Origin: Escherichia phage BAU.Micro_ELP-22
Strand: one strand, 5' to 3'
DNA: 64,000 nt
Sequence record: OR699282.2
In this document: positions 18,274-19,928 of the stretch, in pieces
How positions within the stretch are numbered: position 1 is the first letter of the stretch
Layout: each line of letters opens with the position of its first letter
Notes under the pieces: model-generated
What the model was told of the DNA's origin: nothing
Database searches by the model: none
Seen by the model: only the letters and a program-made list of their open reading frames with translations
Translations under genes and position numbers: made by a program

Positions 18274-18507
18274 ATGAAACTATCTTTTATACGATTGGCT
18301 GAATTCTTTGGTACTGATGTAATTACTCTACAACAAATCGCAGATAATACATCATTAACTACACAAGAAGTACTTGATTTAGATGTAATTCAGTGCGATA
18401 ATACTTCCATCGATTACAAAGAAGGTCTTGTCGAAAAAGATAAGATTCAAGCTAAAATTAATGGTGCTGGACGGGTTCAGTACTGGAAAGGAGTTTTAAG
18501 TAAATGA
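18274..18507 (+). CDS. hypothetical protein
   Basis: ORF 77 aa; SD AGAGG. Confidence 0.6.
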   Translation: MKLSFIRLAEFFGTDVITLQQIADNTSLTTQEVLDLDVIQCDNTSIDYKEGLVEKDKIQAKINGAGRVQYWKGVLSK

Positions 18508-19928
18508 AAATTTATATTGATAAATTTGGAACGACTTATGAATATTATGATTATACACATTATAATTCATATATACAAAAAAATCATAACCAAATGTCAC
18601 CTTATTTGCATTATGAAGATTTAATGGAACTATTCTCTAAAAATGTAAATTCTATTAAATTTATTGGTTTTAAAGATCCAACATGGAAAAGTTCACATAC
18701 GCATGTGTATTTTGAATATGATAATATGGTATATGAACATTCAATATCAAATATCAAAACAAAATTCGCTGATCATAGATATAAACCAGGTAGAATATGT
18801 AGAACCTTGGAACAAATTATAAATGAGTCCATTTATATATTTAAAAAATATGATAAATTTAATTTTCATAGCATTGCATCATTTAATGGAGCACGAACTA
18901 TAATCAATTATACAATTGAAGGACGTGAAAGAATATTTTCTATATCATTCAATTCATTAATAAAAGATTTTAAAGGGGGAAGCCCATGTTATTCATATGA
19001 AGAAGTAGAAAATATATCTATAAAAAAATTAAATGAACATAATTTGAGATTTATCTCAATTAGTAAATTTAATGGTGTGTTTAGTTGTATTGAATATGAA
19101 CAACCAACTCAGAAAGGAAAAAAATATGTTGATTTTAATATATTAATCTATAATGAATGGAAAGGTAATCTACCGAATATAACTAATGAAGAGGTGAATA
19201 ATCGAATTTCAGAAAAAATGAAAAAACTAAATATCAATGAATATGAAATTGTAGAATATAACAGTACTAGGAGCATGGTTGAATATACAGTTGATGATAT
19301 TTCATATACAACTAGTTACGATAAGATTATGCATCCAACTTGGAAAGGTAATCCAAGATATACAAAAGAAAGAATAATAAAATTGTCGAAAAAATATTGC
19401 AAGGGTAAAAAATTTCAATTTAATAAAATAATTGGTAATGTTAAAGGAATTAATACTATCATTGAATTAGAACTTGAAAATGGTATGTTTATATATCCAA
19501 AATTTATACAATTAAAAGGAGGTTCTGACTTTAATACATCCACTGATGGTAAGATTTTAACAGAAATAATTTATCCTTTGTTCGACAATTATATCACACA
19601 AAAACGTTTTGAAAATTGTAGAAATCCTGAAACTGGATACTTGTTGCCATATGATTTGTATGTTCCAGAATTTAATTTATTATTAGAAAAAGATGGAGTG
19701 CAACATTACAATCCAACAGCATATTTTAATAAAACATATGAATCATATTTGAAATTGAGAGAGAGAGATGAATTTAAAAACAAATATGCCATATCAAATG
19801 GTTATAATTTCATGCGAATAGCAGATTATGAAGATCATGAAAAAATATTGAAATCTTTCCTTAAACTCATTGAAGAGAATCCAGGAAAGCAAATTGTGCA
19901 GATCTATGGTGAAGTACAAATTATCTAA
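18504..19928 (+). CDS. putative nuclease with C-terminal PD-(D/E)xK / Vsr-like domain (possible homing endonuclease)
   Basis: 474 aa, very AT/Lys/Asn-rich; C-terminus PYDLYVP..LLLEKDGVQHY..RERDEF..GYNFMRI fits a restriction-endonuclease-like motif. Confidence 0.55.
   Translation: MKIYIDKFGTTYEYYDYTHYNSYIQKNHNQMSPYLHYEDLMELFSKNVNSIKFIGFKDPTWKSSHTHVYFEYDNMVYEHSISNIKTKFADHRYKPGRICRTLEQIINESIYIFKKYDKFNFHSIASFNGARTIINYTIEGRERIFSISFNSLIKDFKGGSPCYSYEEVENISIKKLNEHNLRFISISKFNGVFSCIEYEQPTQKGKKYVDFNILIYNEWKGNLPNITNEEVNNRISEKMKKLNINEYEIVEYNSTRSMVEYTVDDISYTTSYDKIMHPTWKGNPRYTKERIIKLSKKYCKGKKFQFNKIIGNVKGINTIIELELENGMFIYPKFIQLKGGSDFNTSTDGKILTEIIYPLFDNYITQKRFENCRNPETGYLLPYDLYVPEFNLLLEKDGVQHYNPTAYFNKTYESYLKLRERDEFKNKYAISNGYNFMRIADYEDHEKILKSFLKLIEENPGKQIVQIYGEVQII

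Follow-up and report, generated by a model that had tools for sequence, protein, structure and literature searches.

Homing endonuclease genes are common in large phages. The seg and mob genes of phage T4 lie between conserved genes, are present in some relatives and absent from others, lack promoters, and read on the same strand as their neighbors, to whose existing transcripts they are joined; their nucleases are of the GIY-YIG and HNH types and usually cut hundreds of base pairs away (PMC2988022). Here we describe a gene that resembles seg and mob in all of these points of placement and expression but encodes a predicted Vsr-like nuclease. It is an open reading frame (ORF) of 474 amino acids (aa) in a 64,000-nucleotide stretch of Escherichia phage BAU.Micro_ELP-22 (sequence record OR699282.2), hereafter the window, to which all positions refer. 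We consider this ORF probably to be a free-standing homing endonuclease gene, active now or until very recently. The label “homing endonuclease” is already attached to it in GenBank record PQ390715, and its protein family is known to have thousands of members.

As judged from a structural model, the protein would group in function and fold with the Vsr-like (“EDxHD”) homing endonucleases and be free-standing, like Hef. I-Bth0305I of the EDxHD family (PDB 3R3P; PMC3239194) is likewise phage-borne and carries its nuclease C-terminal to a modular DNA-binding region, which is predicted here. Placed by alignment register rather than by residue-wise structural superposition, the conserved Asp and His are 17 residues apart in both proteins (D196-H213 and D384-H401), and a later conserved Asp (D222) roughly corresponds to D422. 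The gene for I-Bth0305I lies in a group I intron of recA, and the enzyme has NUMOD/helix-turn-helix (HTH) motifs, whereas the window gene is free-standing and encodes five alpha-beta3-alpha modules. Taylor et al. (PMC3239194) placed Hef (Sandegren et al. 2005, as cited in PMC3239194 and PMC2988022), which we compare by description only, in the Vsr-like family. It is a free-standing intergenic gene of a large lytic coliphage and takes the place of other endonuclease genes that relatives carry at that locus, as the window gene does; Hef lies between nrd genes of T4-like phages, and the window gene lies in an early-gene plastic region of an Asteriusvirus. Relative to Escherichia coli Vsr (PDB 1CW0), the window protein lacks the zinc site and the intercalating Trp motifs and has in addition a 345-aa array, and its gene is dispensable and mobile.

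Two other systems bear on the locus. The T5orf172 homing endonucleases (ICP1 and T5-like phages; PMC10448857, PMC8096241) share the design of tandem repeats of about 60 aa with a terminal nuclease, the shuffling of domains between paralogues, and a location at boundaries of genetic exchange, but their nuclease is T5orf172/GIY-YIG-like and their repeats are CapR/DUF723/DUF4397 zinc-finger domains, whereas the window protein has a Vsr-like nuclease and Cys-free repeats. Promoter-early stem-loop (PeSL) cassettes drive module shuffling in T4-like phages (PMC2839356, PMC4122927). They have been described for T4-like myoviruses, and cassettes in the window have the same nt-1-type architecture and bound variable modules. 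In our literature search we found no paper on this endonuclease architecture or these genes in Asteriusvirus and none naming PeSLs in RaK2/Asteriusvirus-type jumbo phages.

Empty site, rival occupants, and lateral spread

By its sequence the window is part of the genome of an Asteriusvirus, an E. coli jumbo phage of the 121Q/PBECO4 group with a genome of about 350 kb. Phage SHEFM2K (PQ390715) is the top match, at 98.6% identity over 91% of positions 16900 to 21200. The endonuclease gene follows orf77, a small gene conserved at 84 to 100% aa identity in 28 phage records, and is followed by a PeSL and a P-loop ATPase-like gene that adjoins the site on the right in all genomes examined. In Salmonella phage SD-15_S21, orf77 and the PeSL are kept with nothing between them. 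This exact empty site reads AGTAAA/AAAAGGGTTGAC, with the slash at the insertion point (in longer form ...GTTTTAAGTAAA/AAAAGGGTTGAC...), in an allele whose sequence includes ...CAGTACTGGAAAGGAGTTTTAAGTAAAAAAAGGGTTGACTTCGGTCGGCCC.... The missing segment, delimited by BLAST boundaries and sequences, measures 1427 bp and has no target-site duplication; span arithmetic on the alignment gives a gap of 1427 to 1429 bp in phages SD-2_S15, SD-6_S16, and SD-1_S14 as well. The stop codon of orf77 (TGA, 18505-18507) is provided by the inserted gene, and in SD-15_S21 orf77 is without its own stop and runs 11 codons into the PeSL, to 88 aa. The presence/absence polymorphism that an earlier interpretation from the letters alone (the sequence-only reading) had proposed as a check is therefore found, both as this empty site and as other occupants elsewhere. 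The 3' end of orf77 bears no significant conservation footprint of a target, with 11 of 95 columns variable versus 23 of 127 (Fisher p=0.19).

Except in the four SD phages, orf77 is followed by some endonuclease gene in every record inspected. The 474-aa protein (PHROG 9084/559) is the occupant in the window, SHEFM2K, and JNE01; its place is taken by proteins of 372 aa in G17 (PHROG 9084/559), 371 aa in vB_Ec-M-J, 379 aa in PBECO4, 487 aa in 121Q and UB, 628 aa in phAPEC6, and 565 aa in A4, the last four matching PHROG 681, “endonuclease.” Five of these alternatives (372, 371, 379, 628, and 565 aa) begin within 1 nt of the same point, and the 487-aa allele begins about 44 nt further downstream. 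A Vsr-like C terminus is common to the 474-, 372-, and 371-aa occupants (for the 371-aa protein by BLASTP), whereas the PHROG 681-type occupants have a different C-terminal domain. For the nuclease class of 121Q, PBECO4, and phAPEC6, a T5orf172/GIY-YIG identity was rejected, since Pfam gave no such match. The N-terminal 90 or so residues are similar (34 to 42% identity) in G17, vB_Ec-M-J, and PBECO4, and since PBECO4 resembles the other two there and differs from them in nuclease class, domains have been shuffled between occupants.

Some relatives carry further genes at the site. Turkey3 (L013 1130-5190) has a 432-aa endonuclease gene (PHROG 559/681) upstream of orf77, in the interval between denV and the ATPase-like gene, and, 3' of orf77, two ORFs (471 and 352 aa) that match nothing in Pfam or PHROGs. 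An extra small ORF of 60 to 108 aa, with a signal-peptide-like N terminus (MKKLMLVMLMCLSTTVNA in UB), follows the PHROG 681-type endonuclease gene in UB, 121Q, and PBECO4 and may be cargo that travels with that allele.

The endonuclease gene is 99.6 to 100% identical across genomes whose flanks differ by 2 to 38%. Between the window and JNE01, identity is 98 to 100% from about 18400 to 19943; the gene has 5 mismatches in 1425 positions (0.35%), the 5' part of orf77 has 14 in 127 (11%), and the ATPase gene has 296 in 777 (38%). Identity in the JNE01 flanks is 84 to 88% for the 5' part of orf77, 55 to 62% for the ATPase gene, and 94 to 99% for denV, and it collapses from 19944 onward, leaving the right PeSL as the only right-hand homology. 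The converted tracts in JNE01 are thus at most about 110 bp on the left and about 12 bp on the right. Between the window and SHEFM2K there are 45 mismatches in 17789-18456 and none from 18457 to about 21988, with a recombination junction at 18396-18456. The two comparisons together place a recombination junction 50 to 110 bp upstream of the endonuclease gene.

The exact endonuclease protein is indexed in 28 blocks of a public assembly collection. The 10 places listed all have the gene between orf77 and the ATPase gene, with 0 differences in 1425 nt; divergence of the flanks reaches 9% in the 5' part of orf77, 2% in the ATPase gene, and 7% farther downstream. All 12 further copies, from 2 phage records and 10 assembly contigs, are at the same site; scans of IMG/VR and JGI metagenomes yielded no more. 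Because 10 of the 12 (L016-L025) were retrieved by exact protein identity, only synonymous sites are informative in them. The pattern fits the observation that nuclease genes occupy boundaries of genetic exchange (PMC10448857).

PeSL-mediated modular shuffling could by itself account for the presence/absence pattern, with no part for the nuclease in its own spread. In SP27 and UE-S1 both orf77 and the endonuclease gene are absent, exactly between two PeSL copies, so that 18207-18267 and 19929-19989 collapse to a single copy; in fEgEco12 and ph0011 denV leads directly into the ATPase-like gene, with nothing in between; five PeSL copies lie within 20 kb; and such cassettes are documented drivers of shuffling in T4-like phages (PMC2839356, PMC4122927). 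However, the left edge of the SD-15_S21 indel falls in the stop region of orf77 and not at a PeSL, the left junctions with JNE01 and SHEFM2K are inside orf77 (about 18396 to 18456), and at least six endonuclease genes replace one another at one point, which recombination between repeats alone does not predict. We regard shuffling as the sole cause as unlikely.

Nuclease domain, N-terminal array, and composition

Since a run of 474 stop-free codons at 25% GC has a chance of about 1e-19, the ORF is a real gene. An exhaustive HMMER search found 5871 representative proteins at E<=1e-3, nearly all aligning to residues of about 345 to 455 only. In an alignment of 83 homologues D384, E395, H401, and D422 are invariant (83/83), K425 is present in 82 and D397 in 71, and G398 and Q400 are near-invariant; the window protein lacks none of these residues. 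With this alignment as its basis, an AlphaFold2 model of aa 330-474 reached a mean predicted local distance difference test score (pLDDT) of 90.8, and Foldseek ranked Vsr first for it, with probability 0.99. On the evidence of this model, the C-terminal domain is a Vsr-like PD-(D/E)xK nuclease with its catalytic residues intact. The sequence-only reading had seen a PD-(D/E)xK or Vsr-like signature at the C terminus, and the predicted fold confirms it.

Searches at the level of sequence were less productive. Pfam and NCBIfam gave two sub-threshold, irrelevant Pfam matches only, the Vsr and DUF559 Pfam models did not match the protein, and PDB sequence and profile searches found no nuclease. Weak Pfam matches among the homologues were to DUF5889, DUF2726, DUF559, PvuRts1I_N, and RAP, of which we take the last four to belong to the Vsr-like/PD-(D/E)xK group. 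An hhalign comparison of the family profile with E. coli Vsr was not significant; its register sets D384 on D51 and D397 on H64 of Vsr. The Glu of an “S-x-G-E” helix, found in 43 of 78 homologues, is Gly in the window protein. The PHROG matches are to 9084, “homing endonuclease” (aa 362-449, 7e-14), and 559, “HNH endonuclease” (2e-15), the latter covering repeats and nuclease (aa 48-461) and also matching PHROG 681-type proteins of the other class through the repeat region. HNH identity was rejected: the protein has no HNH motif, no HNH Pfam model matched at E<=1, and the predicted fold is PD-(D/E)xK. The HNH label, which PHROG 559 and several homologues in GenBank bear, is thus probably a misnomer for this endonuclease. 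T5orf172 (GIY-YIG) identity was likewise rejected, with no such Pfam match and a Vsr-like C-terminal fold.

The final 30 or so residues, a helix and the hairpin QIVQIYGEVQII, are a lineage-specific extension. The C-terminal extension occurs in only about 26 to 38 of the 83 family members. The last 45 or so residues (aa 425-474; 19777-19928), NGYNF(I/M)RIA(Y/D)YEDH...LKSFLKLIEENPGKQIVQIYGEVQII, are near-identical across the P0002-P0008 endonucleases, which are otherwise 30 to 50% identical or unrelated, and the C-terminal 150 nt or so are about 91% identical in DNA between the window and G17 alleles. The sequences suggest gene conversion, or a common recombination arm, among paralogous endonuclease genes.

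Vsr itself being the best structural match, and denV, a pyrimidine-dimer glycosylase gene, lying about 1 kb upstream, the protein might be a bona fide repair enzyme that nicks mismatches in a repair cluster. Such a role beside denV is most improbable for a dispensable gene whose place is taken in sister phages by endonuclease genes unrelated to it; moreover, the 345-aa modular array is foreign to Vsr, similarity to Vsr in sequence is not significant, and the Vsr and DUF559 models go unmatched.

The sequence-only reading had also pointed to repeated WKGN-type modules in the N-terminal part. These are real: after a beta-hairpin come five units of about 61 to 67 aa that align with one another and end in YKPGR, FKGG, WKGN, WKGN, and LKGG, the motifs FKGG156, WKGN219, WKGN280, and LKGG337 being spaced 57 to 63 aa apart. 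In a full-length AlphaFold2 model (pLDDT 82.6) each unit is a helix, three strands, and a short helix; modules 1, 2, 4, and 5 are modeled with confidence (pLDDT about 85 to 94) and module 3 scores low. A Foldseek search of PDB with this model gave only low-probability matches with high root mean square deviation (PCNA and tandem double-stranded-RNA-binding domains), and no NUMOD or HTH Pfam model matched the N-terminal region at E<=1. Tandem repeats are absent from the ORF at the DNA level, which means that the modules, as units of protein, are old.

At the equivalent position 15, 21, and 35 of the 83 homologues have tandem CapR, DUF723, and DUF4379 treble-clef zinc-finger repeats, respectively. 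CapR-type repeats are typical of phage homing endonucleases, being DNA-binding modules of the T5orf172 enzymes and of the PLE repressor CapR (PMC8096241, PMC10448857). The window protein has five Cys in all and no CxxC pair, and S341 and N344 (in LKGGSDFN) stand where the Cys pair of the last finger is found in 72/74 and 71/74 homologues. P0002, P0012, and P0023 show significant similarity to residues 6 to 160, where module 2 is aligned with a segment of P0002 that weakly matches CapR. Membership of the modules in CapR, DUF723, or DUF4379 was rejected, there being no Pfam match and no two Cys/His pairs per repeat; against a hidden Markov model of 264 homologue repeats the real sequence scored no better than 2000 shuffles, and hhalign of the modules with zinc-repeat units gave a probability of 0.8%. 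Because these sequence tests were not significant, we claim positional equivalence to the zinc repeats and not membership. From the alignment we conclude that the WKGN-type motif probably occupies the former position of the second zinc knuckle; the array, which most likely descends from CapR-type modules and has become zinc-free, is by analogy with such proteins presumed to be a modular DNA-recognition region.

The loss of all zinc ligands, against their retention at the last repeat in 72 of 74 homologues, would also suit an endonuclease that is defunct or domesticated, serving as a DNA-binding regulator of PeSL promoters or as an exclusion nuclease that degrades competitor phage DNA without copying itself. 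The insertion point adjoins a promoter, and CapR modules have been co-opted as a promoter-binding repressor (PMC8096241). Yet all the catalytic residues are kept, modules 1, 2, 4, and 5 are modeled confidently as folded, no PADLOC defense-system model matched the protein, and the near-identity of the gene across diverged backgrounds argues for recent lateral spread. We hold such a fate to be quite improbable.

In composition the gene stands apart, as the sequence-only reading had claimed when it called the ORF richer in AT, Lys, Asn, and Tyr than its neighbors. Its GC content is 24.8% (16% at third codon positions), that of the flanking genes is 33 to 39%, and Ile, Lys, Tyr, and Asn make up 9 to 11% of its residues each. 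It has the second lowest GC content of the 102 window ORFs (mean, 36.7%; z=-2.4) and is the most AT-rich of 2503 sliding 1425-bp windows (mean, 35.8%; standard deviation, 3.1%), the lowest outside the ORF being 28.3% GC. The gene is thus distinguishable from its flanks. The sequence-only reading had called such an oddity, together with a nuclease domain, typical of free-standing homing endonucleases; low GC is suggestive here and not diagnostic alone, because three further window ORFs with no known function likewise have 27.5% GC or less. Strongly AT-rich ORFs elsewhere in the window, of 23 to 28% GC (7983-8784, 6999-7343, and 23657-24319), belong to PHROGs of unknown function (31284, 33518, 36165, and 34359) and are not recognizable as nucleases.

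PeSL cassettes, expression, and a model of homing

Two copies of the consensus AAAGGGTTGACTTCGGTC(A/G)GCCCTTTTTGCTATAAT lie at 18212-18247 and 19932-19968, and three more with at most 3 mismatches start at 6505, 12359, and 16933, all on the + strand; these five copies, within 20 kb, compare with 0 expected by chance. The hairpins have stems of 11 to 13 bp, a UUCG loop, folding energies of -16.8 to -18.6 kcal/mol (z, -4 to -6.6), and a U-run after them, and the promoters, TTGACT and TATAAT with an upstream TG and an 18-nt spacer, are near-consensus for sigma70. The cassettes match the nt-1-type PeSL consensus A3-4G3-loop-C3T3-4 (PMC4122927). Going by their sequence, each combines what defines a PeSL, a predicted stable stem-loop over a sigma70-type promoter, repeated and placed at the borders of variable modules. 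The left hairpin, AAAGGGTTGAC-TTCG-GTCAGCCCTTT, folds at -18.6 kcal/mol (z=-6.6), is followed by a T-run, and scored 11/12 in a promoter scan; the right one, AAAAGGGTTGAC-TTCG-GTCGGCCCTTTT, folds at -16.8 kcal/mol. The left PeSL is likely the terminator of the upstream gene and an early promoter for orf77 and the endonuclease gene, and the right PeSL is the predicted terminator of their transcript and promoter of the ATPase-like gene. The sequence-only reading had the endonuclease ORF bracketed by terminator-promoter cassettes. Both exist; since the left one precedes orf77 and not the endonuclease gene, what they bracket is a two-gene unit.

The endonuclease gene lacks its own promoter and its ATG overlaps the stop of orf77 (ATGA), so it is likely transcribed together with orf77, from the promoter in the left PeSL up to the hairpin of the right PeSL. 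A Shine-Dalgarno sequence, AAGGAG, lies 10 nt 5' of the ATG within the W-K-G codons of orf77; its AAAGG core is common to all alleles in a junction alignment of 12 genomes, in which UB and 121Q differ at 18492-18493. Because the gene is intergenic, overlaps orf77, and has no group I intron or other Rfam family nearby (none in 15000-23000 at E<=1), it is free-standing.

PeSL-like sequences are found more widely. The 34- to 46-bp core is 91 to 100% identical in phages that are only very distantly related, namely Aeromonas phage 65, Vibrio phage 1.081.O, Yersinia phage fHe-Yen9-03, Klebsiella phage K64-1, Serratia phage BF, Pectobacterium phage CBB, and Erwinia phages. A degenerate PeSL-like remnant (aaaggaaaggattgacttcggtcacataaagg) lies at 17505-17545, 5' of the 64-aa ORF. 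Since SHEFM2K, phAPEC6, PBECO4, and the SD phages are without that ORF, it too seems to be a module that is present in some phages and absent from others.

We propose the following model. The endonuclease gene would be transcribed early from the sigma70 promoter of the left PeSL, as a bicistronic orf77-endonuclease mRNA ending at the right PeSL hairpin, and translated from the AAGGAG inside orf77 by ATGA coupling. The N-terminal array would recognize an extended, asymmetric stretch of DNA, which the Vsr-like domain would cut with Mg2+, using D384, E395, D397, D422, and H401. In a mixed infection the cut would fall in a co-infecting genome without the gene, most likely at the junction ...GGAGTTTTAAGTAAA/AAAAGGGTTGACTTCGG... 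or close to it; the insert splits this junction and hence would protect it. Phage recombination would then repair the break from the endonuclease-carrying genome, copying in the gene along with its immediate flanks, up to about 100 bp of orf77 at the left end and a portion of the PeSL at the right end. Separately, the PeSL repeats would permit gain or loss of whole modules by recombination. A cut near the insertion point is the likeliest choice because the converted tracts are short and the insert interrupts the sequence in which the 3' end of orf77 meets the PeSL; the short tracts in JNE01 suggest that cleavage is close by, unlike that of T4 seg and mob. That the cut falls there, with immunity by site disruption, we put forward tentatively, at somewhat below even odds.

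Several points weigh against a homing endonuclease gene that moves in this way. Cleavage, target site, and homing are predicted from sequence and structural models. The nuclease assignment rests on predicted structure and family conservation, with no Pfam, NCBIfam, or PDB sequence match; the homology of the modules to zinc repeats is non-significant in profile tests, all zinc ligands are absent, and DNA binding is assumed. The empty site of SD-15_S21, where orf77 is stopless, could be a precise secondary deletion and not an uninvaded target, and the loss of the whole module in SP27 and UE-S1, bounded by PeSL repeats, needs no nuclease. Zero nonsynonymous differences are by construction, as 10 of the 12 copies were chosen by exact protein identity. 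Finally, the free-standing endonucleases of T4 usually cleave far from the place where they are inserted (PMC2988022), which makes the junction target a guess, and the right half of that target is a repeated element. The Vsr-like fold, the empty site, the rival occupants, and the island of DNA identity nevertheless support the homing endonuclease that the sequence-only reading had suggested.

A broader proposal is still more tentative. The seven-A tract between orf77 and the PeSL may be a single contested homing site, at which at least six endonuclease alleles of two unrelated nuclease classes (Vsr-like PHROG 9084 and PHROG 681-type), with shuffled N-terminal modules, displace one another. The 3' end of orf77, also the source of the ribosome binding site, and the portable PeSL of about 48 bp would serve as homology arms, so that the gene could enter even genomes with just about 60% identity in the downstream gene. 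The Cys-free alpha-beta3-alpha array would moreover be a zinc-independent derivative of CapR-type fingers, an undescribed DNA-recognition scaffold.

Neighborhood and significance of the locus

The features of the locus are collected in Table 1. The 64-aa ORF lies between denV and a 119-aa ORF that is followed by orf77; JNE01 is without the 119-aa ORF at the locus and SHEFM2K without the 64-aa ORF. The denV gene is polymorphic, encoding 171 aa in the window, 121Q, G17, and SP27 and 144 to 145 aa in SHEFM2K, phAPEC6, and PBECO4; the SD-15_S21 annotation has a 259-aa ORF for it, extending into the region of the 119-aa gene. A gene for a 137-aa “HNH endonuclease” lies directly upstream of denV in vB_Ec-M-J, fEgEco12, and L018. 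An array of small membrane-protein paralogues is found 3' of the ATPase-like gene: eight successive, mostly overlapping genes (20835-23615) encode paralogous multi-pass membrane-like proteins of 104 to 141 aa with basic tails (…KIRGDF, …KRKRG; PHROG 19454 and relatives), the first two sharing about 80% DNA identity across about 130 bp. The sign of the GC skew flips at about 24.3 kb and about 42.5 kb, probably because gene orientation switches there. The 64-kb window contains no tRNA genes and no paralogues of the endonuclease.

Table 1. Features of the endonuclease locus, in window positions except where another sequence is named
Feature	Position	Strand	Remarks
denV	16994-17509	+	pyrimidine-dimer glycosylase
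64-aa ORF	17548-17742	+	between denV and the 119-aa ORF
119-aa ORF		+	between the 64-aa ORF and orf77
Left PeSL-type cassette	18212-18247	+	hairpin at 18212-18237, then T-run
Left PeSL -35	18218-18223	+	TTGACT, within the hairpin
Left PeSL extended -10	18239-18247	+	TGcTATAAT
orf77	18274-18507	+	conserved ORF of 77 to 79 aa, PHROG 34150
Shine-Dalgarno sequence	18488-18493	+	AAGGAG
Endonuclease ORF	18504-19928	+	474 aa, ATG start, overlaps orf77 via ATGA
Mobile insert	18505-19931	+	1427 bp, missing from SD-15_S21
N-terminal region	18504-19538	+	aa 1-345, beta-hairpin and five alpha-beta3-alpha modules of about 60 aa
Modules 1 to 5			about aa 31-97, 98-160, 161-223, 224-284, 285-345
C-terminal Vsr-like PD-(D/E)xK nuclease domain (predicted)	19539-19928	+	aa 346-474
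D384	19653-19655	+	conserved residue
E395	19686-19688	+	conserved residue
D397	19692-19694	+	conserved residue
H401	19704-19706	+	conserved residue
D422	19767-19769	+	conserved residue
K425	19776-19778	+	conserved residue
Right PeSL-type cassette	19932-19968	+	hairpin and promoter
Right PeSL -35	19939-19944	+	
Right PeSL -10	19963-19968	+	
ATPase-like gene	19997-20767	+	P-loop, 256 aa, PHROG 1250
PeSL core motif copies	6505-6537, 12359-12391, 16933-16965, 18215-18247, 19936-19968	+	
Extra small ORFs of relatives	L004 4639-4965; L007 3430-3711; L008 3420-3602		after PHROG 681-type endonuclease genes

The locus is a natural experiment on the movement of selfish nuclease genes in giant phage genomes. 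Because public sequences keep the 1427-bp insert, the empty site, competing occupants, and junctions within about 100 bp, the target site can be guessed and the guess can be tested. If our interpretation is true, it would correct a widespread mislabeling of the family as “HNH endonuclease,” and the few recognition scaffolds now at hand for engineering would be joined by that of a Vsr-type homing endonuclease with a zinc-free modular array. Two drivers of phage mosaicism, PeSL cassettes and homing endonucleases, would also be linked at a single locus.

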